Assembly (NCBI GenBank): GCA_043823435.1
Contig: JBDRAV010000002.1
Span: 1-59,754 of the forward strand
DNA length: 59,754 bases
DNA from: Candidatus Omnitrophota bacterium
GTDB lineage: Bacteria > Omnitrophota > Gorgyraeia > Gygaellales > Profunditerraquicolaceae
Direction: 5' to 3'
Shown piece after piece: positions 5,722-34,241 of this stretch (its first letter is position 1; every line of letters begins with the position of its first letter). A program made the translations under genes and the position numbers. The notes below the pieces were generated by a model. The model was not told the origin of the DNA. It did not search any database and saw only the letters and a list, made by a program, of their open reading frames with translations.

Positions 5722-6826
5722 TCAGATAGAAAGAAAATATGAAGGCATTGAAAGAATTGGTTCCGAAGGCATCAAGTCGATAAAGACAAGGGGAATCCTG
5801 CCGCAGGAATTAATGGAAAAAATAAGGTATGAAATAGACCCGCACAACCGTCTCATCAGCAGGAAAGCAGGTAATGGCGCCGTCCCATATTTATTCAGGC
5901 AGGTTTTGGACGGAGAGTTCAAGACCGATAAGAAAAACAATTTAGCCTACCATATCAAGGCCCCGGTTACCGGCGGCAAAAAAGTCTCCCCCTATCAGGT
6001 AAAATTAAAAGGCAAGTGGAAGCTGGGTAAGGGGCACGATCTAATCTTTACGTTAGATAAATGGAAGAGGCAGGCCTCCGGTGACAGCCTGACTATCCGT
6101 GGGGATATAATAGAAGTCTGCAAGAACGCCCTGCTGTTCGCGGTGACTACGCGTAGTGGCGGGGGAAACCCGTCAGCGTATATCTTAAAGCTTGAGGGGG
6201 CCTGGCAGGCGGATGAATATAACCGTCTTACATTCACGGTGAATAAAGAAAGAGGCGCTCCCGATATCCTCACCTTTCAGGGGGGATGGGAGATAGGTAA
6301 GGGGTACCGGATTATATACAGGTATGAGAAAGAAGACCTTTTGCGTAAAACAAAGAGGACCCATACCCTGGTTTTTAAAGGGGACTGGGAGATAAAGGAT
6401 AAAACCAGGATTTCATACGTAATAGACAGGAGTAGCGGTTCGGTAATGAATTTCAAAACCAGCGCCGGGATATTTAAAGATAATTATATCAAATACGAGC
6501 TGGGGATAGGGAGGTTACGCAAGGCCAGGCCCCTAAGGCGCGCGATTGTACTCTTCGGAAGCTGGAAGATAAAGAGAGGGGCGGGGCTGATCTTTGAGGC
6601 AGAGTGCGGCAGGAGAAAATTGCAGGATATAACCTTTGGCGCAGAGGCCCGGATTACGGATAAGGATACGGTATTATTCCGCCTGAAAAATGGCTTGAAC
6701 AGGAATATCGGCGCGGAATTAGAATTAAAGCGCAGGTTTTTGGGCAGCGAAGGAGAGGCGTATCTACGCCTGCTTCATTCCGGCAGAAAGCCGGAAATTA
6801 CGGCAGGCGCAGGGTGGAGGTGGTAG
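5708..6826 (+). CDS. Hypothetical beta-strand-rich repeat protein
   Basis: 372-aa ORF with repeated [LF]xGxWx[ILA] units; ends AGAGWRW; TTG start uncertain. Confidence 0.7.
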   Translation: MIPVDQIERKYEGIERIGSEGIKSIKTRGILPQELMEKIRYEIDPHNRLISRKAGNGAVPYLFRQVLDGEFKTDKKNNLAYHIKAPVTGGKKVSPYQVKLKGKWKLGKGHDLIFTLDKWKRQASGDSLTIRGDIIEVCKNALLFAVTTRSGGGNPSAYILKLEGAWQADEYNRLTFTVNKERGAPDILTFQGGWEIGKGYRIIYRYEKEDLLRKTKRTHTLVFKGDWEIKDKTRISYVIDRSSGSVMNFKTSAGIFKDNYIKYELGIGRLRKARPLRRAIVLFGSWKIKRGAGLIFEAECGRRKLQDITFGAEARITDKDTVLFRLKNGLNRNIGAELELKRRFLGSEGEAYLRLLHSGRKPEITAGAGWRW

Positions 6827-16243: not shown

Positions 16244-16948
16244 ATGAAAATATCCGTCAAGACTGCCCTGTTTTTTATTTTTTTCTTTAGCGCGATATCA
16301 GGGGCTGGGGCAGATACGGTTTATCTTAAGAACGGACGACAGATAAAAGGTATTATTAAACAGATGAATGATGAATTCCTGGAATTAGGGGTAGGTTCGG
16401 GGACGGTAAAGTTTTACCTCCAGGAGATTTTACGCGTGAAACGCTCTTCGCAGGATGAAAACCAGCTGATGAAGGGCCATTGGGATAGTGAGCGCTTAAG
16501 AAAAGAAGAAGAACTTAAAACCCGCCGGCAGCAGGAAGAGGAAGCCAGGGAAGCTATGCCAAAAGACGCTAAGGCCAGCCGTAGAGGGGACCATCTTTTT
16601 GTAAATGCGCTATTAAACAAGAAGGTGAATGCCAGGCTTCTGGTTGATACCGGTGCTTCGTTTGTTGTGCTTTCTCCCGCCATAGTGAAGAAATTGAATA
16701 TAAACACAGAGAAGAAGGATTCACCCCAAATAAAAATAACGGTGGCAGACGGCAGGGAGATCTTGGGTAAATATTTCAAGCTGGAAAGCATCAGTATAGG
16801 GGAGGCTACGGCAGAAGGCGTTGACGCTTCGATAATCTTTGAAGAGGACGCTTTTACTGATTTTGACGGGATCCTCGGGATGTCATTTCTGAAATTATTT
16901 AAATTCGCAATCGATCTTGATGGAAACAGGCTTATTTTGCAAAAATAA
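16244..16948 (+). CDS. Secreted clan AA (retroviral-like) aspartyl protease
   Basis: Signal peptide; LLVDTGASFVVL and GILGMSFL. Confidence 0.85.
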   Translation: MKISVKTALFFIFFFSAISGAGADTVYLKNGRQIKGIIKQMNDEFLELGVGSGTVKFYLQEILRVKRSSQDENQLMKGHWDSERLRKEEELKTRRQQEEEAREAMPKDAKASRRGDHLFVNALLNKKVNARLLVDTGASFVVLSPAIVKKLNINTEKKDSPQIKITVADGREILGKYFKLESISIGEATAEGVDASIIFEEDAFTDFDGILGMSFLKLFKFAIDLDGNRLILQK

Positions 16949-19955: not shown

Positions 19956-20438
19956 TTATATTTCTAGTATGGGATCTAAAAGGCCTGATCCCCTATTTAA
20001 CGTCCTGGATTTCCAACTACTCCATTCGTATCCAAGTGGCGATGAGGTCAAATCCGCTCTAACTGGATTATATTCGATGTAGTTTAGGCAATCTACAAGA
20101 TACTGATCTTTTTGGATAATCATATTCTTAAATCTTCCCTGCCAAAGGTGGCCAACCTTATTATATTTCTTATTGAACCAAATTGTATATGTCAGATCGA
20201 TACCTTGCATAAGCTTTCCTAGATCGTTTATTTTCTTAACTTCAATAATTAGATGGATGTGATTAGGCATCAGACAATAGGCGTATAGCTTGAAGTGGTA
20301 TTTTCTTTTATAATGGACCAGGATTTCCAGATATTTGTTAAAGTCCACATCTTCTAAAAAGATTTTTTGTTTTTGATTACCCCGTTGAATAATATGGTAA
20401 CACACATTTGGTATTATTAATCTAGGGCCCCTAGTCAT
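19956..20438 (-). mobile_element. REP-associated tyrosine transposase (RAYT, Y1 HUH family), apparently intact
   Basis: YHIIQRGN, YCLMPNHIHL (HUH), GHLWQGRF, YIEYNPVRA, YEWSSW; ATG 20438 with GGAGG RBS; flanked by REP-like palindromes. Confidence 0.9.
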
Positions 20439-20455
20439 ATTTATCACCTCCTCTA

Positions 20456-20485
20456 TAATAGACGAAGCAAAAGGGAGTTTCTAAC
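20456..20485 (-). promoter_or_regulatory. Putative ECF-sigma promoter driving RAYT
   Basis: Minus strand GTTAGAAAC-N12-CGTCTATTA; same motif and spacing as at 21234 and 25334. Confidence 0.65.
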
Positions 20486-20502
20486 ATAAAATTTTATATT
20501 AA

Positions 20503-20561
20503 GGGGACACTTCTCGCTTTGACCGAAGAAGTGTCCCTTGATTGTCAGGAGAAGTGTCCCT
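20503..20561. repeat. REP-like palindromic cluster, right flank of RAYT
   Basis: GGGGACACTTCT at 20503; AGAAGTGTCCCT at 20527 and 20550. Confidence 0.85.
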
Positions 20562-20607
20562 AAAAAAGATTTATAATTAGGTTAGTTGGTGCTATAATAC
20601 GGCTATT

Positions 20608-21219
20608 ATGGATGACTTGGGGTTTGTCCATAGATGCGTTAAAGGGGACAAGCAGGCGTGGGATGAACTTGTAGAAAGATATTCTTCTTTAATATATAAT
20701 TACATCCATAGCGTATTGAAGATAAAAGGTCGTATCTTCTCGCAGGAAAATGTCAACGACCTCTTCCAAGAGATCTTCCTTTCTTTAGCCAAAGATAATT
20801 TTAAGAAATTGAGCACCTTTAGGGCCAGGAACGGTTGTAGCCTTGCAAGTTGGCTAAGGCAGGTTACTATAAATTTTACCATTGGTTATATCCGTAAAAT
20901 CAAGCCTGTGCTTTCATTGGATGAAGAGATAGGTGATGATTTTAGCATGGCAGATATACTTGCATCTGATTTGCCGTCCGCAGCTGATGATCTGGATCGG
21001 GAAGAAAAGATTATACACCTGAGGGGTTGTATCGATAGATTAAACACTGACGATAAATATTTTCTTGAGTTGTATCTTTATAAAGGGATTGGACTTGAGG
21101 AATTAAAAGTTTTCTTTAAGGTTTCGCGCGCAGCGGTTGATATGCGTAAGAGCAGGATTGTTGAGCGGTTAAGAGAGTGCTTCAAGGATAAAGGTTTTAT
21201 CTTGTCCGATAAGAAATAA
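20608..21219 (+). CDS. ECF (group 4) RNA polymerase sigma factor
   Basis: GDKQAWDELVERY, NDLFQEIFL, SLASWLRQV (region 2), AVDMRKSRIVERLR (region 4); TGcTATAAT extended -10 at 20590-20598. Confidence 0.9.
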   Translation: MDDLGFVHRCVKGDKQAWDELVERYSSLIYNYIHSVLKIKGRIFSQENVNDLFQEIFLSLAKDNFKKLSTFRARNGCSLASWLRQVTINFTIGYIRKIKPVLSLDEEIGDDFSMADILASDLPSAADDLDREEKIIHLRGCIDRLNTDDKYFLELYLYKGIGLEELKVFFKVSRAAVDMRKSRIVERLRECFKDKGFILSDKK

Positions 21220-21233
21220 ATCCGATTTATGGA

Positions 21234-21263
21234 GTTAGATTTCATACATTTTTACGTCTATTA
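21234..21263 (+). promoter_or_regulatory. Putative ECF-sigma promoter of the anti-sigma/CHAT operon
   Basis: GTTAGATTT-N12-CGTCTATTA; ATG begins 22 nt after the motif end. Confidence 0.7.
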
Positions 21264-21284
21264 TAACAGGAAGGAAATGTTGAT

Positions 21285-21989
21285 ATGCCTGATACATTAG
21301 AGCGGTTAATAAGGATAGTTTATAAAAAGTGGAAACAGGCTCATCGATTAACGCAGGAGTCGCATCCAGATGAAGAAGCATGGGTTTGTTTTTTTGATGG
21401 TAGGCTGTCGGCGCAAGAAGATGAGCGCATAAAGGAGCATTTAATAAGTTGCGAATTTTGTTCAGAGATTGTTGCTGCTGTAGCCAGATCGGAGCCGGTT
21501 CCCGTAAAAACTTTGCCTAAAGATTTAGCAGAGCGCGCGAAGGATTTAGTGGTATCGCAGGAGAGATTTTCTGTCGCAGAAATAATCATTCTACTTAAAG
21601 AAAAGATGCTGGAGATATTGTCTATTACCGGGGATGTGCTGGTCGGGGAGGAATTTGTGCCTGCACCGGTATTGCGTAGCCGCAAGATAAAAGAATTTAA
21701 AGACGAGATCACTATTTTAAAAGATTTCAAAGATATAAGAGTCGAGGTAAAAATACAAAATAAGCTTGGCCAATCCTTTGATCTGTTTGTCTTTGTGAAA
21801 GATAAACAGAGCCACCGTATAATTAAAGACTTAAGAATTACTCTTCTTAAGGGGGACTTAGAACTCGAATCCTATCTTACCGCTTCCGATAAGGTAATCT
21901 TTGAGCATGTGCTGGCAGGAAAATATACCGTTGAGATATCAAATGCCGATAATAAAATTGCCTCGGTATTGCTTGATATCAGAAAATAG
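21285..21989 (+). CDS. Zinc-finger (ZAS) anti-sigma factor, apparently soluble, with a C-terminal beta-rich domain
   Basis: HPDEE...GRLSAQEDERIKEHLISCEFC (HxxxCxxC); no clean TM helix. Confidence 0.8.
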   Translation: MPDTLERLIRIVYKKWKQAHRLTQESHPDEEAWVCFFDGRLSAQEDERIKEHLISCEFCSEIVAAVARSEPVPVKTLPKDLAERAKDLVVSQERFSVAEIIILLKEKMLEILSITGDVLVGEEFVPAPVLRSRKIKEFKDEITILKDFKDIRVEVKIQNKLGQSFDLFVFVKDKQSHRIIKDLRITLLKGDLELESYLTASDKVIFEHVLAGKYTVEISNADNKIASVLLDIRK

Positions 21990-21995
21990 TAGCGC

Positions 21996-24197
21996 ATGGA
22001 AGAGCGTAATGCCCTGATTTTAGAGATTCTAAGGCATGACACCACGTTTAGAATGAGCATTTCTGAACGGAATGATCTTGTCCAGACCGTAAAACACTAT
22101 AGTCAACTCAGCGTATCATTTGCGGAAATAAATAAGTTATGCCGGGAAACAATAGAGATACTTAATAGGGCAAGCAAGAAATCCGCTTTAACCCTCGACC
22201 ATATAAATAATCTTAAAAAAACAGGCCAGATACTCTGGGATCATCTGTTTACCAGGTCGGTAAAAGACAGGTTGACTACGACCATAATTAAAGAGCTGGT
22301 TCTTTCCATAGATGAGGAGTTAATTAATATCCCCTGGGAACTCTTGTATAATGGCAATGAGTTCATGTGTCTTAAATTCAATTTGGGGCGGTTGGTCAGG
22401 ACTAAAGAACAGGTTGCCCCAAGGCAATACCGCAGCTTAAAGGCTACCCTTAAGATGTTGATATTGGCTAACCCGAATAATGACCTAAGATCAGCTTACC
22501 TTGAAGGTGTGTATATAAAGAATCAGTTTGACCGTAGAAGGAACGAGATCGGCATCGATTTCAAATCTACCCATATTGATACGCTGTATGTAAAAAAGAA
22601 TCTGCGGGATTATGATATCGTGCATTTTGCCGGTCACTGCGAATATGATAGTAATAATCCGAAGAATACGGGATGGGTTTTAAGCGATGGAAGATTTACT
22701 ACGGCGGATATTCTGGCTTTAGGCGAAAGCCTTTCTTTCCCGGCCTTGATATTTTCTAACGCATGCCACTCCGCCAAGGCCGTAACCGAAATAGAAGATT
22801 TGGATTACCACGAGAAGAATTATAGCCTTGCATCAGCATTTTTGTTTTCAGGAGTAAGGCATTATATCGGCACTATATGGAAGGTAGAAGACCCGGTGAG
22901 CTTAGCCTTTGCCAGGGAATTCTATACGCATTTGATTAAAGGCAATTCCGTGGGCGAATGCATGCGTCTTTCGCGCCTGAAATTAATTAAAGAATATGGC
23001 ATCGGCACTATATCGTGGGCGAGTTACATCCTTTACGGAAACCCGGATTTTGCATTGTTCAGGCCTAAGCCTCACCCAGCGCCATTAAAATTTAAAAAGG
23101 GTGTTTCTTTATACAAAAAACAGATAGTAAGAGTCCTTTTGGCGGCTTTTGCCTTCTCTATAATTTTGTTTTTTTATACATGGCTGCCTACCAGGAATCC
23201 TACTACCTTGTTTTCTTTTATCAAGTCCAAGAAACTATTCCTAAAGGGGAATAATCAGGAAGTTATACTGATTTGTAGCCGAATCATAGAAAGGGAACCG
23301 TCGTTTCTGGCGGCCTATCCGTTAATAGCGGATACGCATGAAAGGATAGGCGATAGAGATAAGGCGTTAAAATATTATTTTGATTACGCCTTCGCCAGCG
23401 AAAAGAAGCACGATAAAAAACACCTGTCTTCTGCTTATATCGGGATTGCGTGGTCTTATCATCAGCAAGGAGAATATCCTAAGGCCTTAGATTTCTACAA
23501 CAAGGCAGCCGCATTAAGCAGGGAAGCCCGCGACAAGCTGAACGAAGCGGTTGCTCTCAGGAAATTGGCGGTCTGGCATATGGACAAAGAAGATTATGAT
23601 AAGGCGCTAGAATTACTCACAAAAAGTTCCGAGATCAACCGTGAAAGAGGGCGGCAGTATGAACATAAATACAATCTGGCCTGCGATTATTTTGATATGG
23701 GCCTAGTTTTTTCCAATAAGGACGATTTTACTACAGCCAAGGAGTTCTATAATAAGAGCCGCATCATTTTTGAGAAATTAAACCTAAAGAACGAATTAAG
23801 CGATTGCTATTTTAACCTTGGTGAGATATGCATTTTTCAGAAAGAATATCAGAAGGCCATGGATTATTATATGCAGGGGTTGAAGATAGATGAATCGCAG
23901 GACGATAAGCCGAGCCTGGCAAGTGATTATAATATGATAGGAGAATTATATCTGGAGATAAATGATCTCCAGCAGGCCGAGAAATTCTTTAACCACTCGG
24001 TTATTATTTCCAAACAGATAAATGCCCGTCCGGAATTAGCATCGGCGTGCTATAATCTAGGGATTCTGTATAAAAATAATGGCAGAAAGAGCAAAGCGCG
24101 GGATTATCTCAGGCAAGCTCAGGAGATATACCGTATGATGGATACTTCGGATTACCTGGAAATCAGAGAAGAGCTTATAAGCCTTGATAACCAATAG
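21996..24197 (+). CDS. CHAT (caspase-like) protease with a TM helix and TPR repeats
   Basis: IPWELL, IVHFAGH (His), IFSNAC (Cys), YIGTIWKV, WASYILYGNP; TM IVRVLLAAFAFSIILFFYTWL; about 8 TPR-like repeats. Confidence 0.88.
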   Translation: MEERNALILEILRHDTTFRMSISERNDLVQTVKHYSQLSVSFAEINKLCRETIEILNRASKKSALTLDHINNLKKTGQILWDHLFTRSVKDRLTTTIIKELVLSIDEELINIPWELLYNGNEFMCLKFNLGRLVRTKEQVAPRQYRSLKATLKMLILANPNNDLRSAYLEGVYIKNQFDRRRNEIGIDFKSTHIDTLYVKKNLRDYDIVHFAGHCEYDSNNPKNTGWVLSDGRFTTADILALGESLSFPALIFSNACHSAKAVTEIEDLDYHEKNYSLASAFLFSGVRHYIGTIWKVEDPVSLAFAREFYTHLIKGNSVGECMRLSRLKLIKEYGIGTISWASYILYGNPDFALFRPKPHPAPLKFKKGVSLYKKQIVRVLLAAFAFSIILFFYTWLPTRNPTTLFSFIKSKKLFLKGNNQEVILICSRIIEREPSFLAAYPLIADTHERIGDRDKALKYYFDYAFASEKKHDKKHLSSAYIGIAWSYHQQGEYPKALDFYNKAAALSREARDKLNEAVALRKLAVWHMDKEDYDKALELLTKSSEINRERGRQYEHKYNLACDYFDMGLVFSNKDDFTTAKEFYNKSRIIFEKLNLKNELSDCYFNLGEICIFQKEYQKAMDYYMQGLKIDESQDDKPSLASDYNMIGELYLEINDLQQAEKFFNHSVIISKQINARPELASACYNLGILYKNNGRKSKARDYLRQAQEIYRMMDTSDYLEIREELISLDNQ

Positions 24198-24206
24198 GAG
24201 ACCTTT

Positions 24207-24770
24207 ATGAGAATATTGTCGGTTCTGGCAATAATATTATTCTTACTAAATGTTGCAGGTTGTTCTATGCCGATAGCATCTACCCGAGGGTCTTTATACG
24301 GTTTTACCAGGGTAGAGAAGAGGTCCAAAGGTATGTTTAAAGGCAGCAAAACCGTAACTATCCAAGATTTCCGTCAGAACGAGGCATACGATGAAGACAT
24401 AACAGACCTTAAGCAAAGGGTGGATGAATATATTTTACGTCATCCGGAATTAAGCGAATCAGTTAAGAAAGATTTACGGGAAATAAAAGTAACTCATGGG
24501 GCAACCAGCGATGAGGCTATTCTATTATTAGGTAAGCCTGATAAGGTGATGAGGGCATCGGGAGAAGGCCGGTACGGTGCCACGGAGATATGGATTTACA
24601 GGATAAGCAAGTTACGGTTCTTCACTGTATTTATTTTTCCAGTATTTCCTGTCCATGAAGGGCATTACTTGTATTTTAAAGACGGCGTGCTGGTAGAAAT
24701 AGAGCATCGTTCTCTTGAGCAGACTGTCAAGCAGGGGCAGGGGGCGGGGCTTACCGAATCCAAATCTTAG
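24207..24770 (+). CDS. Lipoprotein with a BamE/SmpA-like motif
   Basis: Lipobox VAGC; GATSDEAILLLGKPDKV...EIWIY. Confidence 0.65.
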   Translation: MRILSVLAIILFLLNVAGCSMPIASTRGSLYGFTRVEKRSKGMFKGSKTVTIQDFRQNEAYDEDITDLKQRVDEYILRHPELSESVKKDLREIKVTHGATSDEAILLLGKPDKVMRASGEGRYGATEIWIYRISKLRFFTVFIFPVFPVHEGHYLYFKDGVLVEIEHRSLEQTVKQGQGAGLTESKS

Positions 24771-24863: not shown

Positions 24864-25280
24864 ATGAAAAGAGCCGTAATTATTTACTTACTCTTGTTTA
24901 TGGGGATATCGGCGGGATACGTTTATGCCCAGAAATCCCAAGAATATAACGCTTCCGGGGGTACCCTTGAAGTAGAGGCAGGAAATATTTTTGTAATCGA
25001 GCTTAAATCTAATCAGGTTATAGGTTTAAAATGGCGGCTCGCCAGTCCGCTTGATACAGACATACTTAAGCTTGTAAGCGTAGAGTTCGTAAGGAGTACA
25101 GCTAGAATAATAGGCATTCCGGGTAAAGAAACATGGACCTTTAAAGCCCTTAAGCCGGGTGAGGTAACGATTTATTTAAAGTATAGCCGTTCCCCGTCGA
25201 CAAAAGTCGCCTCGGAAGAAGAGAAGGTCTACATAGTTACCGTTACAGAACCTTCCAAGCAGAAGAAACAGTCTGAATAA
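24864..25280 (+). CDS. Secreted chagasin/I42-family protease-inhibitor-like protein
   Basis: Signal peptide; FVIELKSN..GLKW, GIPGKETWTFKALKPGEVTIYLKYSR; own sigma70-like promoter TTGAAA-16-TAGAAT at 24791-24818. Confidence 0.75.
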   Translation: MKRAVIIYLLLFMGISAGYVYAQKSQEYNASGGTLEVEAGNIFVIELKSNQVIGLKWRLASPLDTDILKLVSVEFVRSTARIIGIPGKETWTFKALKPGEVTIYLKYSRSPSTKVASEEEKVYIVTVTEPSKQKKQSE

Positions 25281-25384: not shown

Positions 25385-26950
25385 ATGAAAAAACATACGG
25401 TATTTGCGGTAATTGCAGGTTTATTTCTCTTTGGCGCAGGGGTTGAATCTTTGGCAGGAGAATTATCTTGGCAGGATATAAGCAGGGAGGTCTTAGATTT
25501 AAAGACGGTTTTGGTGAATCCCGATAATCCGGATAATATTTATATAGGAGCGCATAACGGGATTTTTAAGACAAGCAATGGGGGCGCAGGTTGGAGAAAT
25601 ATCCTTTCCCTAAAGGGCCGGAACCACCAGATAAATTTTTTATCCTTCAACCTTGGCTATAGAAATTCTCTATACGCAGCCACAGGAAACGGACTTTTTT
25701 ATAGTTTTGACGATGGAGAAACCTGGAAGAAGATTTTTAGAGGCAAAAACTATCTTGAGAGTGAATGTACCTGTGTTGTAGCTTTATCAAACCTTATCTA
25801 TCTCGGCACAAAAGGAGGGCTCTTTATAAGCAAGGACAAAGGCCGCACCTGGCATAAGGATAAAGGCGTGCTGGGCAATAGCCCGATCTTGGCCATAGTC
25901 TATAATGCTAAAGATGCGGCATATATTTATGCCGCCTGTTTAAGCGGGGTATTTATAAGTGGAAACCTGGGGCAATCATGGGAGAGGATTTTCGCTGCCC
26001 TGGTTATAGGAGATGTTTCTGAGAAAAAAGAAGCGGCCGAGGAGCGCGATGATGATGAAGAGAGGTCTTTGGGGGTAAGGCATATTGCCTGCGACCCTCA
26101 TAATTTAAATTGTCTTTACTTAGCTACATCCAGAGGAGTTCATAAGAGCTGTGACAGGGGGCGGAGTTGGGAACAGTTTCCCGGTGACGGCCTGCTTAAC
26201 AAAGAAGTAAAATTCCTTCTTTTTTCTAATAATGGTGATTTTTATGCCGTTAGTAAATCAGGAATATTTGAGTATGCGGCTGGCCGTTGGCAGGAATTAT
26301 CGCTTGGCCTGACAGCGCAGGAGATTAGATCCTTGGCCTCAGATAATCAGAATAATTTATATGCCGCCTGCGATAAAGGTCTATTTAAAACAGTATATTC
26401 GGATTATAAGGAAAGAGGAGATCTAATGTCGTTATATTATATGGATATACCGGAGATCAACGAAGTCCAGCAAGCGGCAATTAAGTATGCGCAGGTAGAA
26501 CCGGATAAGATCATCCGATGGAGAAAGCGCGCGGCAAGAAAGGCAATATTGCCGCGGGTTAGCGTAGGTTTGGATAGGAGCGCGACAGACCTGTGGCATT
26601 GGGAGTCAGGGTCGACCACAAAATCAGAAGATGACATATTAAGGAAGGGGCGTGATGCTATAGAATGGGATATATCTTTAAGCTGGGATTTAAGTGAGCT
26701 TATCTGGAACGATGCCCAGACTTCCATTGATGTGCGTTCGAGGTTGATGGTGGAGCTTCGCGATGACATCCTGGATGAGGTAACAAAATTATATTTCGAA
26801 CGCATAAGGGTCAAGATGGAACTGGATAACATATCTATTGAAGATAGAAGAAAGAGATTTGAAAAGGAACTGAAACTAAAGGAACTGACAGCTTTTCTTG
26901 ATGGTCTTACCGGAGGATACTTTTCATCGCACCTGCCTAACCAGAAATAG
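25385..26950 (+). CDS. Secreted BNR/Asp-box beta-propeller protein with a TolC/OEP-like C-terminal segment
   Basis: Signal peptide; repeated S.D.G.TW boxes; QQAAIKYA...ILPRVSVGLD...WDISLSWDL...VTKLYFER. Confidence 0.7.
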   Translation: MKKHTVFAVIAGLFLFGAGVESLAGELSWQDISREVLDLKTVLVNPDNPDNIYIGAHNGIFKTSNGGAGWRNILSLKGRNHQINFLSFNLGYRNSLYAATGNGLFYSFDDGETWKKIFRGKNYLESECTCVVALSNLIYLGTKGGLFISKDKGRTWHKDKGVLGNSPILAIVYNAKDAAYIYAACLSGVFISGNLGQSWERIFAALVIGDVSEKKEAAEERDDDEERSLGVRHIACDPHNLNCLYLATSRGVHKSCDRGRSWEQFPGDGLLNKEVKFLLFSNNGDFYAVSKSGIFEYAAGRWQELSLGLTAQEIRSLASDNQNNLYAACDKGLFKTVYSDYKERGDLMSLYYMDIPEINEVQQAAIKYAQVEPDKIIRWRKRAARKAILPRVSVGLDRSATDLWHWESGSTTKSEDDILRKGRDAIEWDISLSWDLSELIWNDAQTSIDVRSRLMVELRDDILDEVTKLYFERIRVKMELDNISIEDRRKRFEKELKLKELTAFLDGLTGGYFSSHLPNQK

Positions 26951-27017: not shown

Positions 27018-27046
27018 TTGAATTTACTCATTTAAAAGTCTATAAT
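27018..27046 (+). promoter_or_regulatory. sigma70 promoter of the moxR operon
   Basis: TTGAAT-17nt-TATAAT. Confidence 0.75.
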
Positions 27047-27086
27047 GTATCAAACAATCCGGTTAATTAAGAAAGGAGCGAAAGGT

Positions 27087-28013
27087 ATGTATAGCGAGAA
27101 CTTAAGAAAGATAATTGAAAATGTTGAGAAGGTCATTGTCGGAAAGACCGAAACGGTTAAGCTTTTGCTTGTCGGGCTTCTCACTAAAGGCCATATTCTA
27201 ATCGAGGATGTCCCCGGACTCGGGAAGACAACTCTTGCTCTTGCTCTGGCAAAATCCATTAGCGCGGATTTTAAAAGGATCCAGTTCACTCCTGACCTCC
27301 TTCCTTCTGACGTATCGGGAGGGTTTGTTTATAACCCCAAAAGCGGAGAATTCGATTTTAAGAAGGGCCCAGTTTTTACAAACATACTTTTAGCCGATGA
27401 AATTAACAGGACTACCCCGCGTACGCAGTCTGCGCTTCTTGAATGTATGCAGGAATATACCGTGTCTTTGGACGGTAAAACATTCGCCCTTCCGAACCCT
27501 TTTATAGTAATCGCTACCCAGAATCCCATAGAATATCAGGGCACATATCCTTTGCCTGAGGCTCAGATAGATAGGTTCGCGATGAAGATAAGTATGGGTT
27601 ATTTGCGTGTTGAGGAAGAAGTGAAGGTCATATCAGGGCAAAAGATGCAGCATCCTATTGAGAGCCTTCAACCGGCTCTGAAACTGGAGGATATCCTTGA
27701 GCTGCAGGAAGAGGTTAAAAAAATACAGGTTTCCCCTAATGTTATGGATTATATTGTAAAGCTCGTTTCCGGCACACGCACGAGAGATGACGTTAAGTTA
27801 GGTGCAAGCCCCAGGGCTTCTATCGCACTGATGAAAGTCAGCTCTGCGTGGGCGCTCCTTGAAGGCAGAGATTATGTTGTCCCCGAAGACGTAGTCACCC
27901 TTTCGCCCTGGGTATTAAAACACAGGATTGTATTGCAGCCCAAGGCCATGATCGCGGGCAAGAATTCTGAACTTGTAATCTCTGACTTATTAAAAAGCAC
28001 GCCTATCCCTTAA
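27087..28013 (+). CDS. moxR: MoxR-family AAA+ ATPase
   Basis: GHILIEDVPGLGKT, RIQFTPDLLPSD, LADEINR, IATQNP, GTYPLPEAQIDRF, GASPRAS; start at ATG 27087 after AAGGAG. Confidence 0.93.
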   Translation: MYSENLRKIIENVEKVIVGKTETVKLLLVGLLTKGHILIEDVPGLGKTTLALALAKSISADFKRIQFTPDLLPSDVSGGFVYNPKSGEFDFKKGPVFTNILLADEINRTTPRTQSALLECMQEYTVSLDGKTFALPNPFIVIATQNPIEYQGTYPLPEAQIDRFAMKISMGYLRVEEEVKVISGQKMQHPIESLQPALKLEDILELQEEVKKIQVSPNVMDYIVKLVSGTRTRDDVKLGASPRASIALMKVSSAWALLEGRDYVVPEDVVTLSPWVLKHRIVLQPKAMIAGKNSELVISDLLKSTPIP

Positions 28014-28021
28014 AAACGAAT

Positions 28022-29257
28022 ATGCTTAAGGTATACTTCAAGAGATGGCTCTTCCTTTTCCTCATTATTATAGCTAACCTGCTTATAGCGCTTCAGACAT
28101 CCATAGAGTTCTTCGCTTTATTTTTCTGGTTTTTGATATCTCTCGTATTCGTGAGCTTGATATGGATTGCCATAGGATACCTCGGAATAAATTTATCTCT
28201 GGCAAGAAGGACCACGACCAAGTTAGAAGAGGATGATACCGTAGAAATAGAAACAATAGTAAGCAATAAGAGCCTCCTGCCGATATTTAATTTTGTCCTG
28301 GAAGATCATCTTACGTGCGCGGCTCCCGGGGAAAGAGAGAGAAGATTTATATTAGAATATATCGGCCCCCGCTCAACAGCCAGCTTAAAATACCGCTGCC
28401 AGTGCCCATTAAGAGGCAGATACGAAATAGGCCCGATCCATATTTATATTTTTGACCCCTGGGGCCTGTTTTTCCTTAAAAAGACATTTTTCTTATATTC
28501 AGAACTTTATGTTTATCCGCGCACATTTAACATCTCCAAGTTTCCTCCCTTGACAAAGGGGACCGCTCCCTGGTTTGGCATAGAGACCGGCCGTGTCAGC
28601 GGCGATGATCACGAATTTTACGGTATCAGGGAGTATAAGCCGGGGGACCCGATAAAGAGGATCCATTGGTTATCCAGTGCCCGAAAGAATAAGTTAATCG
28701 TCAAACAATTTCAACACCAGGTTTTCTTCAGGGCAACGATCATATTCAATTTAAATAAAGAAAGGAACTACGGCGAAGGAAAGGAGAGCGTAGCGGAATA
28801 CATCATAAAGATAGCCGCCTCCGTGGCCAAATATTTTATTGAACGGAATGTCTCCGTAGAGGTTATAGCGCATATAGGAGAGACGGTATATATACCTTTT
28901 AATAAGGGCCCCGAGCATTTAGAAGATGTTCTTAAGCTTCTTACCATAGCTAAAGCGGAAAGCATGGTCAGCCTGAACGAACTCTTTCAGGAATTTTCAT
29001 CCTATATCCCGAACGATTCCAGTTTGATTGTGATAATGCCGGACGAGGATTGGGAGTTTTTGTCTGCAATGATGTCCCTGAAGGTGAGGAATGTCTCGCT
29101 GCTCCCTCTAATATTGAATTCTTCTTCGTTTCTGCGTTCTCCCGATAAACAAGGCATTATAGAATCCCCCGCATTCAAATCTTCGCAGGCATTTGACTCC
29201 GCTCCTATCTTTTTTGCCCGCGGCGATAATTTAGAGCATAATTTTCTCAAATATTAG
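28022..29257 (+). CDS. DUF58 (vWA-like) protein with N-terminal TM helices
   Basis: EFYGIREYKPGDPIKRIHWLSSARKNKLIVKQF. Confidence 0.9.
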   Translation: MLKVYFKRWLFLFLIIIANLLIALQTSIEFFALFFWFLISLVFVSLIWIAIGYLGINLSLARRTTTKLEEDDTVEIETIVSNKSLLPIFNFVLEDHLTCAAPGERERRFILEYIGPRSTASLKYRCQCPLRGRYEIGPIHIYIFDPWGLFFLKKTFFLYSELYVYPRTFNISKFPPLTKGTAPWFGIETGRVSGDDHEFYGIREYKPGDPIKRIHWLSSARKNKLIVKQFQHQVFFRATIIFNLNKERNYGEGKESVAEYIIKIAASVAKYFIERNVSVEVIAHIGETVYIPFNKGPEHLEDVLKLLTIAKAESMVSLNELFQEFSSYIPNDSSLIVIMPDEDWEFLSAMMSLKVRNVSLLPLILNSSSFLRSPDKQGIIESPAFKSSQAFDSAPIFFARGDNLEHNFLKY

Positions 29258-32059
29258 ATGGAAGAAAAAAACCGCTATTTATTATCTGAGCTTTTATTTA
29301 CCTTCCTCCTGATTGAGTCGGTAATCCTTCTCTTCGGAGGCATCCTCTCGCCTTATGGGGTATATTTTTCTATCGGATTGATAGGCGGGCTTTCTTTTAG
29401 CTGGTTCATTCGGGATAAGCAGATCCCATCAACTAAATTAACCGTAAATATCGCTGTTCTGGGAGTTTTTTTCTGGATAATATACTCGCTGTTACATTCA
29501 TCTTTTCTTTACAAAGAAGTCATTGCCATATTTATACAGGGTTTGATTATTATACAGGTTATCTTCAGCTTTAATATCCGCTATACCGGCTTCCTGACAT
29601 ATGTCCAGGCCTTAAGCATCCCTTTGTTCATGTGCTTTCCCATATTTGCAAAGGATTACAATGAGGGGCAGATCATACTGGTCTTGGTTTATATTATTTG
29701 CTGGATAATAATCCTTAAAATAAAATTTTATGAATTTGTTAAAGCGCAAAGGGAGAAGAAGATCAGGCGCTATTTACAGATTGTTATCTCCATGGCCATT
29801 TTCTTAATCATTTTATCTGTTACATGGACCCTTTTTAATTACATAACGCTGGGAGAAATCGCAAAAAGAGGAATATTGTTTGAAGAAAGCATGGGATCGG
29901 AGGCTGAAAAAGATCTTCTGGAGAAAGAATATTATATCTTGCAGGATGAGATCCAGAAAGAAATATTAGGTATAATCCCCGAGCTTGATTTTCATGAGGA
30001 CAAGCAGGAGACCATTATGCTGCTTAGCTCGTTGCTAAAGGATTCGATTTCTGCCATTGAGGTACAGAAGGCCAGGCTCGGCCTTATCAGCCGCATGAAA
30101 GAACCCGGGCCTGGATTAGAAGCGAAGGGCGGGGAAATATCCGCCGCCATCGAGAAGTACATAGAGAGAAAAATTAAATTCAATATGAATAAGACTAGAG
30201 AAGAGATAATGAATAATCTAAAACAGAATAGATTCAACCTTATGGAGATGTTCTCTCTTTCGGATAAAATAAATAAAATGGAGAGTGCCGATTCAAACCA
30301 GAAAATAAAGAAATACGCAAGAGACATTAAGAAAGGCATTGATAATTCTTCCGCGGCAGGTAATGCAGAAAGAGATTTGTGCAAGCTCGCTGACCAGCTT
30401 AAAGAATGGAAAACATACGATGCCTACCGCGAAAAATCAGATTCTTTAAATAAAGAATCCGACTCGCTGCAGGGGAAGTTAAAAGAAAAATTGAGTGACC
30501 TGCTTTCCGATATTAATAATGCGGAGGGAATTTCGGAACTGAAAGATGCCGAAGAGAAGGCCGGAGAATTAGAAGAAACCCTTCTTCTTGCCGGCAAGGA
30601 CGCGATAAATAAGACTAAGGAAATGCTGGAGTCAAAGTCAAAGACGCCCCTTTCGCAAAAAGCTGAGGGATTAAAAAAAGAGAAGGCCGGAGAATTAGAA
30701 GAAACCCTTCTTCTTGCCGGCAAGGACGCGATAAATAAGACTAAGGAAATGCTGGAGTTAAAGTCGGAGATGCTTCTTTCGCAAAAAGCCGCGGAATTAA
30801 AAAAAGAAATAGATGACCTTAAATTGCCAGAAGATTACCGGGAGGAATTAAAAGAAAAGGTAGGCAGCATTAAAGACGCCATGGATTATCGCGAGTTCTC
30901 GGGAAGCGTATCGAAATACCGCGAAAAGATAAGGGAAGGCAAGATAAGCGTTCCCGAGAAGACAGAGGGGTTATTGGAAACAAAAGCCCATCTTCTTTTT
31001 AATGCAAAGAAAGATGAGATCAGAAAAGAATTGGAGAAAAGTAAGTTACCCGACAAGGGCAAAGAATTTATGAATGACTTAGAAAAGCTGGAGGATGAGA
31101 ATAGCAGAGAGAAGTTAATCGCTGATACCGAGAAATTGAAAGAGAATATAAAAGAATTTTCAGAGCAGGGTTTCATTTCAAATGAATCCAACAATAAATT
31201 AATGGAGGATATGGAGAAGATTAAGGATATTCTTTTATCTAAGATGGAGGCAGGAAATAAATACCTGCAGTCCCAAAGAGACGAAGAAAAAAGCATGGGC
31301 GATTACCAGAAGGAGCTGGAGGAACTAATTGAGAAATCCTCCCTGAATGAAGAAAAAAAAGAAACGTTAAGACAGCTCGCGCAGGCATTAAAGAGGGCGC
31401 AGAGTATTTCTCAGATTGATAATATCAAGGAAGCGGCGGAAAGCGAAATCAAAGATTTACCTACCGATAAAACAAAACAGGAAGATATAGAAATAATTAA
31501 AGAGGCCTTTAATACCTCTATTGAAATCAAGAGGATTTTTATGACAGAGAAGGTCATTTCTGCCTTAAGAGAAAAGACGGAAGATTTGCGGAAGGTAAGC
31601 CCTAAGGTCGCAGAAATAATCCGGGGGGATTTAGAGAAGATAGCAGAGAGCCGCACCGAGAAGGAATTAAAGAAACGGATAGATATTCTCAAGAAGGATG
31701 CGGATTCGCAAAATCAGGAAAAAGAGGAGAAATCGGAAGAGATAAAAAGAGGGGCCGTTGACATATCCATCCTGCCCGCCCGCCCAGTCATCCCTTTGGG
31801 TTCTTCGGTTTCTTTAAGGGTAATAGCCGTTTACAATAAGACATTAATCAAAGAGCTCGGCCCGCAAGTACAATGGTTCTCTTCAGAGCCTTATGTTGCC
31901 TGGGTGGATGAAGCAGGCATAATCCATACTTTAGCCAAAGGAAAGACGCAAATATACGTTAAATACGCTGGGCAAGAGAGCGAAAAGATAGAAGTTACGG
32001 TTGTAGACAATATAGATGAACAGATAAGCAAAGCGGTGGAAAGAGAATCAATAAGATAG
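29258..32059 (+). CDS. Multi-TM N-terminus (DUF3488-like), long charged helical region, C-terminal Big_2-like Ig domain
   Basis: About 6 TM helices in the first 200 aa; E/K-rich helical region of about 600 aa; ISILPARPVIPLG...VQWFSSEP..AWVDEAGIIHTLAKGKTQI. Confidence 0.7.
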   Translation: MEEKNRYLLSELLFTFLLIESVILLFGGILSPYGVYFSIGLIGGLSFSWFIRDKQIPSTKLTVNIAVLGVFFWIIYSLLHSSFLYKEVIAIFIQGLIIIQVIFSFNIRYTGFLTYVQALSIPLFMCFPIFAKDYNEGQIILVLVYIICWIIILKIKFYEFVKAQREKKIRRYLQIVISMAIFLIILSVTWTLFNYITLGEIAKRGILFEESMGSEAEKDLLEKEYYILQDEIQKEILGIIPELDFHEDKQETIMLLSSLLKDSISAIEVQKARLGLISRMKEPGPGLEAKGGEISAAIEKYIERKIKFNMNKTREEIMNNLKQNRFNLMEMFSLSDKINKMESADSNQKIKKYARDIKKGIDNSSAAGNAERDLCKLADQLKEWKTYDAYREKSDSLNKESDSLQGKLKEKLSDLLSDINNAEGISELKDAEEKAGELEETLLLAGKDAINKTKEMLESKSKTPLSQKAEGLKKEKAGELEETLLLAGKDAINKTKEMLELKSEMLLSQKAAELKKEIDDLKLPEDYREELKEKVGSIKDAMDYREFSGSVSKYREKIREGKISVPEKTEGLLETKAHLLFNAKKDEIRKELEKSKLPDKGKEFMNDLEKLEDENSREKLIADTEKLKENIKEFSEQGFISNESNNKLMEDMEKIKDILLSKMEAGNKYLQSQRDEEKSMGDYQKELEELIEKSSLNEEKKETLRQLAQALKRAQSISQIDNIKEAAESEIKDLPTDKTKQEDIEIIKEAFNTSIEIKRIFMTEKVISALREKTEDLRKVSPKVAEIIRGDLEKIAESRTEKELKKRIDILKKDADSQNQEKEEKSEEIKRGAVDISILPARPVIPLGSSVSLRVIAVYNKTLIKELGPQVQWFSSEPYVAWVDEAGIIHTLAKGKTQIYVKYAGQESEKIEVTVVDNIDEQISKAVERESIR
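30554..30805 (+). repeat. In-frame 126-nt tandem duplication (42 aa x2)
   Basis: 81 nt identical (30552-30632 versus 30678-30758); remainder of the unit diverged. Confidence 0.9.
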
Positions 32060-32072
32060 GTCGGGATATTGC

Positions 32073-34241
32073 ATGAAAACAAAGCTTTTTCTTTTAACCT
32101 GTTTCTTATTTTTATTATTACTCTGTCCTTTATATAATTTCGCGGAGCCCGAGTATCGCGAACTAAACACTTCTGCCGGTAAGGTTATTGTCGGTCTGGA
32201 CAGAGAGGGGGCGCTGGAAAAATTTGGCCTCCCTGCCCAGGCGAGTGAGCGCCTCTGGTATTATTCTTCCCCTGAGAGCTTATTTGTTCTTTTTTTCAGC
32301 CAGTCATTTTCGAAGATTTACCTTTACCCCCAGCATCCCCATGGTTCACCGGGTATGCCTTTGGAGTTTCGGGCATTCGGATACCAGTCCGATATGAAAT
32401 TAAGAGATATTACTCAAGATGTGCGGTTATTGATAGACAGGCCAAAAGATTTTATTCTGGGCAAAGGTGGCGTTATAATTCCCAGGAAGGCGGGCGAGTA
32501 TCAGGTATTGGCTAAATATAAGAATATTTTCAGTAATTCTGCCTATATCAAAATAGAAGAATCACTGGAAAGAGAAACAAAAAAAGAGGAATTGATAAGC
32601 ATAAAAATCTTACCTTATAGGCCGGTAATCCCTTATCAGGGCCAATTAGATTTTATGGCGTTAGGGGTATTTCGGGACAGCTCGGGGAGATATACTATAA
32701 GGGATATAACCCGCAAGGCGAAATGGTACGTTAAGCAGGACAAAGAGATAATAAAGAACAAGGACAATAAGTTGTTCGGCCTATCTCTCGGGAAAGCGGA
32801 GCTCTTTTGCAGATACCTAAATTTGGACAGCTATCCTATGGAAGTTTACGTGCAAGAGCAGATCAGCGCATTTAACCAGACCCTTAAGCATATTATGCTT
32901 ATGCCCGAATTGATCTTAGCTGCTTTGGGGAAGAATATAGATTTCAAGGTATTCGCAACGTACAGGAATAACAGTATAGAAGATATAACTCATAAAGTAA
33001 CATGGGAAATCAGTAATAAAAATACGCTGACTTTGATGAAAGGTGGGGAGTTTACGGCAAAGGACATAGGGATTGCCGAAGTAACCGCGGCACTGTACGG
33101 TCTAAAGAGCGGATCGGCAAAAGTAATTGTTGTAGATAAGCAGAAGCAGGCGTTTTTAACTTCGCCTCCGGAAAGCAAGATTAATCCTAAAAGATTATCC
33201 CATGATATTCAAAAGGAAGCAGAAAAGTTAAAAGAGGACTTAGCCAAAGAAGAAAAGAAGTTAACGCTTATAAAAATAACCCCTGATGCCCTTGAGATTT
33301 CGCTCGGCGAGACAAGGGAAGTTAAGGCGTTAGGGATTTATAGCGATAAGTCTGAGGAAGACTTAACACATCTCGGAGAGTGGTCGAGCTCAGACGACAA
33401 GATCGTTAAGGTAGCAGGCGGTAAAATCGGTACTTTCTTGCAAGGCGAGGCGATGATCTATATAAAGTTCAAAGACATAAAGAGCATGCCCGCGGTAGTA
33501 AAGGTGGGAGGGCCTAAATTAGTTTCGATAATTCTTTCGCCGCAAAATTTGCGGATCTCTATGGAAGATAAAACGGATTTTAAGGCAGAAGGATATTTTA
33601 GCGATTCCTCACGCAAGGAGATAACTTCGCTAGTCACCTGGGAATTTAGCAGGCTCGGGATAATCATGATAAAAGAAGATAAAATAATCCCGTTGAAATT
33701 CGGAAAAACCGAGGTCTTTGCCGAATATTCGGGAATAAAAAGCCTCCCAGCAAACATTACTATTATTATTACGATAGGCTGGGTAATGCATATGATTATG
33801 AAGTGGGCGGTTTTCTTATTTTTAGGTATAACGGTGATGTTTATCGCTTTATATGTTTTGACCGAGAAGAAAAAGCGTTATCTGCGCAGTTTCTTGGATA
33901 AAAGCCCCAAGGATTTTGTAATTAATCTCTTTGAGAACATAAAAGGCATATTAGGTATTTTTAATGTGAGCCATAAAGAATGGATGACTCCTTTTTCTTA
34001 TGCCGAAAGGGTCCAGAAGAAGTATTCCATAGAAGGTAATATTTTCTTAAATTTTATCGAGAAATTTGAAGAGGCTAAATACAGTAACCATTCCCTTTCG
34101 CCAGAAGATGCAACCAGGGCTTTAAGCGATTACAACGATTTACTGAAGACCATGCTTGGCCGCCATAATAAGGTTTTGTTGTTTTTTAAATACTGCCTGA
34201 CCCTTTTGCATCGCAGGCCGCTTTTAATACCCAATCCGTGA
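32073..34241 (+). CDS. Exported protein with five Big_2-like Ig domains, a TM helix and a DUF4129-like C-terminus
   Basis: Signal peptide; five I.[IL].P...(G)....A.G.Y.D....D[IL]T..V.W-type units; TM WAVFLFLGITVMFIALYVL; MTPFSYAERV...FEEAKYS. Confidence 0.75.
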   Translation: MKTKLFLLTCFLFLLLLCPLYNFAEPEYRELNTSAGKVIVGLDREGALEKFGLPAQASERLWYYSSPESLFVLFFSQSFSKIYLYPQHPHGSPGMPLEFRAFGYQSDMKLRDITQDVRLLIDRPKDFILGKGGVIIPRKAGEYQVLAKYKNIFSNSAYIKIEESLERETKKEELISIKILPYRPVIPYQGQLDFMALGVFRDSSGRYTIRDITRKAKWYVKQDKEIIKNKDNKLFGLSLGKAELFCRYLNLDSYPMEVYVQEQISAFNQTLKHIMLMPELILAALGKNIDFKVFATYRNNSIEDITHKVTWEISNKNTLTLMKGGEFTAKDIGIAEVTAALYGLKSGSAKVIVVDKQKQAFLTSPPESKINPKRLSHDIQKEAEKLKEDLAKEEKKLTLIKITPDALEISLGETREVKALGIYSDKSEEDLTHLGEWSSSDDKIVKVAGGKIGTFLQGEAMIYIKFKDIKSMPAVVKVGGPKLVSIILSPQNLRISMEDKTDFKAEGYFSDSSRKEITSLVTWEFSRLGIIMIKEDKIIPLKFGKTEVFAEYSGIKSLPANITIIITIGWVMHMIMKWAVFLFLGITVMFIALYVLTEKKKRYLRSFLDKSPKDFVINLFENIKGILGIFNVSHKEWMTPFSYAERVQKKYSIEGNIFLNFIEKFEEAKYSNHSLSPEDATRALSDYNDLLKTMLGRHNKVLLFFKYCLTLLHRRPLLIPNP

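Follow-up and report, generated by a model that had tools for sequence, protein, structure and literature searches.

A conserved gene triad in Omnitrophota encoding a predicted ECF sigma factor, a soluble anti-sigma factor and a candidate transmembrane CHAT receptor protease

The triad locus and its three proteins

The window analyzed here is the whole stretch of 59,754 nucleotides (nt), positions 1 to 59,754 of the forward strand of contig JBDRAV010000002.1, from the Candidatus Omnitrophota assembly GCA_043823435.1, a metagenome-assembled genome (MAG) of 0.79 Mb which is 58% complete. Three adjoining and co-oriented open reading frames (ORFs) on the + strand, at 20608-21219, 21285-21989 and 21996-24197, encode proteins of 203, 234 and 733 amino acids (aa). 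These are interpreted below as a sigma factor of the extracytoplasmic function (ECF) type, a soluble zinc-binding anti-sigma (ZAS) factor, and a receptor protease made up of a CHAT domain, one transmembrane (TM) helix and tetratricopeptide repeats (TPRs). An earlier reading of the bare sequence, called the original prediction hereafter, had described the three genes as an adjoining, co-oriented and CRISPR-independent signaling cascade, and the ORFs were found at the positions which it gave. Domain matches of the triad proteins had E values of 1e-18 to 1e-34, far beyond chance. The genes are flanked by housekeeping functions: on the upstream side are an H+-pyrophosphatase and a Cpn10-like gene, on the downstream side a MoxR/DUF58 operon. 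No cas genes were present among the neighborhood genes examined. The module is chromosomal and independent of CRISPR, as had been proposed. When the proteins were compared with PADLOC defence models, nothing was returned beyond generic TPR matches, a weak match to BovA and a weak match to PDC-S39; membership of a defence system was rejected. The features of the triad are as follows.

20570-20598, + strand: sigma-70-type promoter with an extended -10, TTTATA-17-TGcTATAAT, before the sigma gene
20608-21219, + strand: ECF-type sigma factor, 203 aa, with sigma-2 and sigma-4 regions (TIGR02937, PF04542)
21285-21989, + strand: soluble ZAS anti-sigma factor, 234 aa (zinc ligands, family profile, no membrane helix)
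21996-24197, + strand: predicted HetF-like receptor protease, 733 aa (Pfam, AlphaFold, conservation)
22218-23042, + strand: CHAT domain, aa 75-349, preceded by an N-terminal subdomain (Pfam PF12770)
22635-22637 and 22764-22766, + strand: codons of His214 and Cys257, the predicted catalytic dyad
23112-23183, + strand: membrane helix, aa 373-396 (AlphaFold, Kyte-Doolittle)
23199-24191, + strand: eight TPRs, aa 402-732, predicted to be extracytoplasmic (AlphaFold)

Relatives of the triad were collected with the CHAT half of the protease as query against GTDB species, each represented by one genome, and at least 499 were obtained. Locus counts were made on the 80 best of these, whose records are titled Omnitrophota, Thermodesulfobacteriota or 'Deltaproteobacteria', and Nitrospirota, among others; 66 of the 80 were informative, with at least 1.5 kb of sequence upstream of the CHAT gene. 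Sigma and anti-sigma genes were located directly upstream on the same strand in 58 of the 66 loci, the anti-sigma gene alone was found in four, and neither was found in four. While all other neighbors change, the anti-sigma gene adjoins the CHAT gene in 62 of the 66 loci over several phyla, and the two frequently overlap by 4 nt. When 201 Omnitrophota genomes were sampled, the 234-aa protein had a full-length homologue in 22, and in every one of these the three genes adjoin in the same orientation, with the sigma gene upstream and the CHAT gene downstream. The anti-sigma gene was present in 24 of 25 further genomes of the window's own family, all 10 high-quality ones included, where the usual gene order is H+-pyrophosphatase, sigma, anti-sigma, CHAT-TM-TPR and BNR propeller. 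Nor is the triad rare: the anti-sigma family comprises 466 clusters at 50% identity (E below 1e-30), almost all with a length of 208-283 aa, and the protease is carried by at least 499 species genomes. The triad is not a chance neighborhood, and the gene-neighborhood survey which the original prediction had proposed has shown it to be conserved across genomes.

The 203-aa protein matched TIGR02937 over aa 17-191 with 66.4 bits (cut-off 42.9) and PF04542 (Sigma70_r2) with 27.9 bits (cut-off 24), and scored 18.1 bits against PF04545, below the cut-off of 24.1. Its length of about 200 aa, the presence of sigma-2 and sigma-4 only, the score above the curated threshold, an anti-sigma gene directly downstream and a promoter with a CGTC-like -10 within its own locus are the features of an ECF (group IV) sigma factor. 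The TGcTATAAT element of the promoter before the sigma gene ends 9 nt from the ATG. Of 32 Omnitrophota relatives, 26 likewise have TATAAT in the 200 nt which precede the sigma start; where the upstream regions were inspected, it stood just before the start codon, mostly as TGnTATAAT. The sigma mRNA is therefore probably constitutive and near-leaderless. The main text of the ECF re-classification paper mentions no ECF group with CHAT neighbors.

The 234-aa protein contains the motif H52-x3-C56-x2-C59 and a fourth zinc ligand, H27, which is the ZAS ligand pattern of HxxxCxxC with a further His or Cys about 25 residues upstream. Its score against Pfam zf-HC2 was 17.6 bits, below the cut-off of 22.2, and some homologues carry a match to PF13490. 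Conservation was counted in a second set of sequences, composed of 149 library representatives clustered at 50% identity together with the window protein. H52 was retained in 146, C56 in 147, C59 in 149 and a Cys or His at position 27 in 148 of these 150 sequences. The best PDB profile matches of the family were the ZAS domains of DdvA (top), RsiW and RslA, all weak with E values of 0.014 to 2, and no chain named Csx30 was among the matches. No membrane helix was detected in the window protein, where the 19-residue Kyte-Doolittle mean peaks at 1.36 (threshold 1.6), and not one of the 149 representatives has a segment which reaches 1.6. Intramembrane proteolysis of the RseA/RseP type was rejected for this reason, both for the window protein and for the 149 representatives.

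In the AlphaFold model of the anti-sigma factor, with a mean predicted local distance difference test (pLDDT) score of 77, a helical N-terminal half (aa 2-115) is followed by a disordered linker (aa 118-138, pLDDT below 50, with confident flanks) and by a confident eight-strand beta-sandwich (aa 141-232) which is Ig-like or CarboxypepD_reg-like. A Foldseek search of the PDB with this model returned generic Ig-like sandwiches only, with E values above 1e-3. The segment PVLR/S is aa 128-132 of the protein, and the codon of R131 is nt 21675-21677. Within the Omnitrophota family the disordered linker (GDVLVGxELVPAPVLRSRxIKDFKDE) is the best-conserved stretch; across phyla the linker around R131 is variable, while R131 itself is kept by every one of the 69 locus-derived sequences and by all 150 members of the second set. 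At P2, before the Arg, 67 of the 69 have an aliphatic residue or Phe; at P1', after it, 61 have S, G or A. In one relative (G099) the His/Cys motif has been lost and both the Arg and the triad have been kept. A disordered, conserved loop with a single invariant basic residue looks like a site at which a protease would recognize and cut its substrate, and the protein is proposed to hold the sigma factor inactive by binding it.

The CHAT domain of the 733-aa protein scored 114.8 bits against Pfam (cut-off 24). HFAGH is located at aa 210-214 and SNAC at aa 254-257, and His214 and Cys257 were at least 97% conserved in 140 sequences; the CHAT peptidase is proposed to be active. A Lys-rich linker, RPKPHPAPLKFKKGVSLYKKQ, separates the domain from the sole hydrophobic helix of the protein, which was placed at 377-395 by the Kyte-Doolittle peak and at 373-396 by AlphaFold. 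The 17 helices modeled over aa 402-732 correspond to eight TPRs and a cap (mean pLDDT of the model 86.5). No N-terminal signal peptide was detected. More than 100 full-length homologues have 59-83% identity and belong to Candidatus Omnitrophota/Omnitrophica wherever they are named, and in nearly all relatives a single helix follows 25-45 aa after the CHAT domain. With the full CHAT-TM-TPR model, Foldseek returned so many TPR proteins, LGN among them, that the search was uninformative on the CHAT fold, while a profile of the CHAT half run against PDB sequences gave weak matches to two CHAT chains only, 8tl0 and DdvA.

With respect to topology, the 20 residues before the helix contain a mean of 7.4 Lys plus Arg compared with 2.7 in the 20 residues after it, a positive-inside pattern which predicts an N-in/C-out orientation. 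Support independent of this count came from domain fusions. Relatives in Thermodesulfobacteriota and Nitrospirota have a class III nucleotide cyclase, a cytoplasmic enzyme, fused N-terminal to CHAT, and the exported-type domains are found on the C-terminal side. What follows the helix varies among TPRs, two F5/8-type-C domains, DUF4384 with trypsin, CsgG/LpoB-like or FlgT_C-like domains, a TPR giant of 1900 aa, or nothing at all. This combination of a constant CHAT output, predicted to be cytoplasmic, with an exchangeable outside module is how a transmembrane receptor is built. In the window's family, the TPR part has 65% identity compared with 72% for CHAT. The TPRs are thus nearly as conserved as the protease domain, which speaks for a ligand or partner that is itself conserved and does not evolve fast. 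In a number of Thermodesulfobacteriota and Nitrospirota CHAT-TM relatives (L053 and L062 among them), the cyclase and CsgG/LpoB-like (periplasmic) domains occur in the same receptor, and such cyclase-bearing relatives may act in the cytoplasm both through a second messenger and through proteolysis.

The anatomy given in the original prediction was confirmed throughout by these analyses. It had noted the retained His (HFAGH) and Cys (SNAC) of the CHAT domain, the Lys-rich linker, one hydrophobic helix and about eight TPR-like repeats, and all were recovered; a cytoplasmic protease with an outside TPR sensor, which it had predicted, fits both the charge distribution and the domain fusions. Its description of the anti-sigma factor as a HxxxCxxC protein with no clean TM helix held for the whole set of representatives, and the segment PVLR/S, put forward as a guess for the cut site, was found to contain the only linker residue which is invariant across the family. 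Those of its refuting conditions that were open to computation (a membrane-anchored anti-sigma factor, a hydrophobic segment which is no TM helix, a triad not conserved across genomes) were all decided in favor of the original prediction. The precedents HetF/PatU3 and DdvA/DdvS, and the promoter motif with its regulon, were not part of it.

An ECF-type promoter motif and its predicted regulon

A bipartite motif, GTTAGA-N15-CGTCTA, was matched three times in the window where none would be expected by chance. It takes the form TGTTAGATTT-N-CGTCTA, and the consensus over 134 sites is TGTTAGATTT-N-CGTCTATTA. The three copies are as follows.

21234-21260, + strand: ECF-type promoter GTTAGA-N15-CGTCTA between the sigma and anti-sigma genes, 24 nt upstream of the anti-sigma start codon
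25334-25360, + strand: ECF-type promoter, second copy, 24 nt upstream of the BNR gene
20459-20485, - strand: ECF-type promoter, third copy, directed away from the sigma gene, before a Y1 transposase-family gene

The motif was found upstream of the anti-sigma gene in 26 relatives and begins 44-54 nt before the start codon in all but two of them. The copy before the BNR gene is kept in most of these 26 relatives and the divergent copy in five. When 26 family genomes were searched, 23 contained 2-17 exact sites each, compared with 0-2 for a reversed control pattern; the three genomes with no exact match still carry the triad module. As the module is nearly universal in the family, a comparison of whether the motif occurs only where the module does is uninformative.

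The genes behind the motif recur over five genomes, and their identities were confirmed by Pfam. They comprise the anti-sigma gene (with CHAT), the BNR propeller gene, recA, radC and comM, a ComEA-like TM-HhH gene followed by comEC, the cluster spoVG-aroK-dprA-topA, and Y1-transposase-like and ORF6N genes. Because this gene set is the classical late-competence set, a competence-like regulon with DNA uptake and recombination as its output is predicted. The position of the anti-sigma and CHAT genes behind the same promoter would provide negative feedback. The only sigma factors in these genomes are RpoD, one of ~272-282 aa, the triad ECF sigma, and zero to two others, and we infer that the triad sigma reads the motif because of its CGTC -10, its fixed spacing and the copy inside the sigma factor's own locus.

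A similar output is known from streptococci, where one alternative sigma factor, ComX/SigX, acts through one conserved promoter box on comEA-comEC, dprA, recA, radC and further late competence genes. ComX answers to peptide-pheromone two-component or Rgg systems instead of an anti-sigma factor and a protease, and both its sigma family and its promoter box are unlike those of the Omnitrophota triad. In one relative (G215:C19:12309, L174) the same ECF-type promoter precedes a cas3-like gene with Cas3_HD and DEAD helicase domains, and defence genes may thus come under the regulon in some genomes. In another (G211:C3:15041-15218) a motif copy precedes a second, short ORF of 115 aa with a ZAS-like HxxxCxxC.

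Candidate mechanism, known relatives and alternatives

ECF sigma factors are a major route of bacterial signaling. Their known modes of release include intramembrane proteolysis, redox or zinc switches, partner switching, phosphorylation and, recently, CRISPR-coupled proteases. For the triad, the following sequence of events is proposed. The ECF sigma factor would be made constitutively from the sigma-70-type promoter and kept inactive by the soluble zinc-binding anti-sigma factor. The third protein would be a single-pass receptor protease of HetF-like build, with CHAT in the cytoplasm and the TPRs in the periplasm, such that a signal on the TPR side would cause CHAT to cut the anti-sigma linker after R131 (motif L/V/I-R | S/G). 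This cut would part the sigma-binding domain from the C-terminal beta-sandwich and set the sigma factor free to read TGTTAGATTT-N-CGTCTA promoters. The output would consist of the anti-sigma and CHAT genes (negative feedback), the BNR gene, comEA-comEC, spoVG-aroK-dprA-topA, comM, radC and recA. We assign a probability of about 0.58 to this reading, in which a receptor protease activated from the TPR side cuts the anti-sigma factor after R131 and the freed sigma factor acts on the GTTAGA/CGTCTA promoters. The one-step cascade of the original prediction is thus partly supported: its anatomy, topology, conservation and guessed site have been strengthened, while proteolysis of the anti-sigma factor, the single-step character of the cascade, the direction of signaling and the outside ligand are what we infer. 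A broader proposition, that single-pass receptor caspases in several phyla, each with a constant CHAT protease and membrane helix and an interchangeable outside sensor, free ECF sigma factors by one cut at an invariant Arg of a dedicated soluble anti-sigma factor and that in this Omnitrophota family they act as a master switch for competence, is put forward more tentatively and at somewhat less than even odds.

In build, the closest known protein is HetF; in logic, the closest are Craspase, CalpL and DdvA, and overall the nearest precedents are the pairs HetF/PatU3 and DdvA/DdvS. HetF of Anabaena sp. PCC 7120, the founding CHAT protein, is a CHAT-TM-TPR protein which inactivates the soluble inhibitor PatU3 by one cut, R117|S118; the PatU3 changes R117A, R117D and R117H abolish cleavage and S118A lowers it (PMC8406250, PMC9457339). 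The 733-aa protein has the same order of CHAT, single TM helix and TPRs, and the candidate anti-sigma site L-R131|S132 fits a specificity for cutting after Arg and before Ser. In contrast, PatU3 is an inhibitor of cell division and differentiation rather than an anti-sigma factor, no ECF sigma is involved, and the CHAT region of HetF is larger (an antibody was raised against aa 1-555). Against the NCBIfam model for HetF, NF045509, the 733-aa protein scored 27.4 bits over aa 253-353 only (cut-off 1200), so that its architecture is of the HetF type and it is not assigned as a HetF ortholog.

DdvA of Myxococcus xanthus is a single ZAS-TM-TPR-CHAT chain with a periplasmic CHAT domain which controls the ECF sigma factor DdvS; its active site is incomplete, self-cleavage followed by RseP intramembrane proteolysis has been proposed, and a CBASS/CRISPR defence island is under its control (PMC11506125). 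As in the triad, an ECF sigma is placed under a ZAS domain which is functionally joined to TPR and CHAT domains. Here, in contrast, the ZAS protein is separate and soluble and the functions are divided between two proteins, the CHAT domain is predicted to face the cytoplasm (the N-in side), the domains follow one another in the opposite order and the predicted regulon is competence-like. In type III-E CRISPR, Csx29 (TPR-CHAT) cuts Csx30, and the module consists of Cas7-11, Csx29, Csx30, Csx31 and CASP-sigma/RpoE (PMC10028731). This Craspase resembles the proposed system in that a CHAT protease cuts the soluble partner of an ECF-type sigma factor in a flexible region and alters the availability of sigma; it differs in that Csx29 is cytosolic, is activated by target RNA via Cas7-11 and has its TPRs N-terminal to CHAT. 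Scores against the NCBIfam models for Csx29 (27 bits, cut-off 300) and CASP-sigma (25 bits, cut-off 100) place the triad outside type III-E. A tripartite arrangement of protease, soluble anti-sigma factor and ECF sigma factor in which one cut frees sigma is also found in the type III CRISPR system CalpL/CalpT/CalpS, where the SAVED-Lon protease CalpL cuts the anti-sigma factor CalpT and CalpS is the ECF sigma (bioRxiv 10.1101/2024.05.08.593097). CalpL, however, is a Lon-type serine protease, switched by cyclic oligoadenylate, cytosolic and part of a defence system. Full-text searches gave no paper with the combination of a separate soluble anti-sigma factor, a cytoplasmic CHAT domain and an outside sensor, and relative to the literature so covered the triad would be a novel form of protease-gated ECF sigma signaling.

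Several observations weigh against the proposed mechanism or narrow its reach. The assignment of the motif to the triad sigma is drawn from its position and the CGTC -10, and the second sigma factor of ~272-282 aa is an alternative reader. No enrichment of the exact motif was seen in four triad-bearing genomes that are divergent (three belong to other Omnitrophota families, the fourth to a divergent member of the window's family), and the competence output is for this reason claimed for the bulk of that family only. In the MAG itself recA is frameshifted and comEC has an in-frame stop. As the four CHAT-TM loci with neither sigma nor anti-sigma gene nearby and the non-sigma substrate of HetF indicate, the protease family is not necessarily tied to sigma control. 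Finally, since all four ZAS zinc ligands are conserved, sigma could be released by oxidation or loss of zinc, with no protease at all. As a separate observation on the two damaged genes, recA is split after ...GKTTLTL (C4:~5240-6290 of the same genome), and the in-frame TAA of comEC (C12:~21500-22200) lies beside a recombinase-like ORF; the lesions are either assembly errors of the MAG or decay of competence genes in this genome.

Soluble HxxxCxxC anti-sigma factors encoded beside their ECF sigma factors are known from the RsrA-SigR type, where release is by disulfide formation; these pairs are not known to have a partner protease, a C-terminal beta-sandwich or an invariant-Arg linker. A redox or zinc switch of the RsrA/RshA kind is the alternative which survives best, although we consider it unlikely. 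Thiol oxidation or loss of zinc would free the sigma factor, and the CHAT-TM-TPR protein would be merely co-transcribed or would serve as a reset device, for instance by clearing used anti-sigma or sigma. Such a switch would account for the 94-99% conservation of the ligands C/H27, H52, C56 and C59, for an anti-sigma factor which is soluble like RsrA, for recA and other DNA-repair-type genes in the regulon, and for the anti-sigma and CHAT genes behind the sigma factor's own promoter, the usual place of a feedback component. It would leave the invariant linker Arg and the invariant beta-sandwich residues with no role. Moreover, the partner retains its catalytic dyad across phyla together with the sigma/anti-sigma pair, and the G099 protein lacks the His/Cys motif and yet retains the Arg and the triad.

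A second alternative, which we regard as improbable, is that the CHAT-TM protein is an anchor or scaffold which tethers the sigma/anti-sigma complex through the beta-sandwich and linker, with the Arg serving for binding and the complex being released or sequestered by a conformational change and no cut. Conservation of the linker over about 30 residues within the family exceeds what a cleavage site needs, and the CHAT site of DdvA is incomplete as solved and its proteolysis not demonstrated (PMC11506125). The near-complete retention of the His/Cys pair argues against a scaffold, however, as does HetF, a proven Arg-specific protease of the same build; across phyla it is the Arg alone which survives and not the linker, which fits a P1 residue better than an interface. 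Equally improbable is a protease for some other substrate (the sigma factor, the BNR precursor, or a component of the divisome or of competence) that is merely co-regulated with the pair: a known HetF substrate which is no anti-sigma factor, the four loci that lack the pair and the exported partner genes that always accompany the module would suit it, whereas the anti-sigma gene stays next to CHAT over several phyla as other neighbors change, and the protease domain does not share a compartment with the exported partners.

If the proposed mechanism is correct, a transmembrane caspase-fold protease which receives a signal outside and cuts a soluble anti-sigma factor inside would be a further, compact, one-protein route of ECF signaling. 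The HetF paradigm would be extended from cyanobacterial development to the control of transcription, and Craspase and DdvA would gain a chromosomal relative outside defence. For the Omnitrophota, an uncultured phylum, the triad supplies a testable regulator, promoter and regulon for DNA uptake and recombination. On the broader, master-switch reading it would be a cue from the envelope or from outside, received by the TPRs, that sets off DNA uptake in these mostly ultra-small, possibly host-dependent bacteria.

Neighboring and accessory genes

The genes immediately around the triad are as follows.

19956-20447, - strand: IS200-like Y1 transposase-family gene, 163 aa (PF01797, 4e-17), directly behind the divergent ECF-type promoter
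24207-24770, + strand: accessory lipoprotein gene with lipobox LNVAGC, beginning 10 nt past the CHAT stop codon; outside the conserved core
24864-25280, + strand: exported chagasin-family (I42) cysteine-peptidase inhibitor (PF09394, 1e-19, signal peptide); not part of the conserved core
25385-26950, + strand: exported BNR/sortilin-like beta-propeller protein, 521 aa; conserved downstream neighbor and predicted regulon member

The BNR propeller is a candidate periplasmic partner. The lipoprotein and chagasin-family genes are inserted between the CHAT and BNR genes, and homologues of the two were found in five and three, respectively, of the 80 relatives' loci. The chagasin-like protein was considered as a regulator of CHAT and rejected, since it is exported, the I42 family targets papain-like enzymes and the gene is not conserved in the module; the inhibitor and the CHAT domain are predicted to be in different compartments.

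On the other side of the triad, homologues of the Y1 gene stand behind the same motif in three relatives (G211, G215 and G221), and the gene looks like a domesticated or RAYT-like member of the regulon rather than a random insertion. Between it and the sigma gene, at 20500-20562, two palindromes resembling repetitive extragenic palindromic (REP) elements were observed (GGGGACACTTCT...AGAAGTGTCCC), and GGGACAC...GTGTCCC hairpins are found at the same position in many relatives. Just 3' of the BNR gene, a co-oriented run at 27045-34241 encodes a MoxR AAA_3 ATPase, a DUF58 protein, a protein of 933 aa with no Pfam match and a Big_2 protein of 722 aa. Upstream, at 16244-16948, a protein of 234 aa with a retropepsin-like aspartyl protease domain (gag-asp_proteas, 2.6e-16) is encoded next to a Cpn10-like gene.

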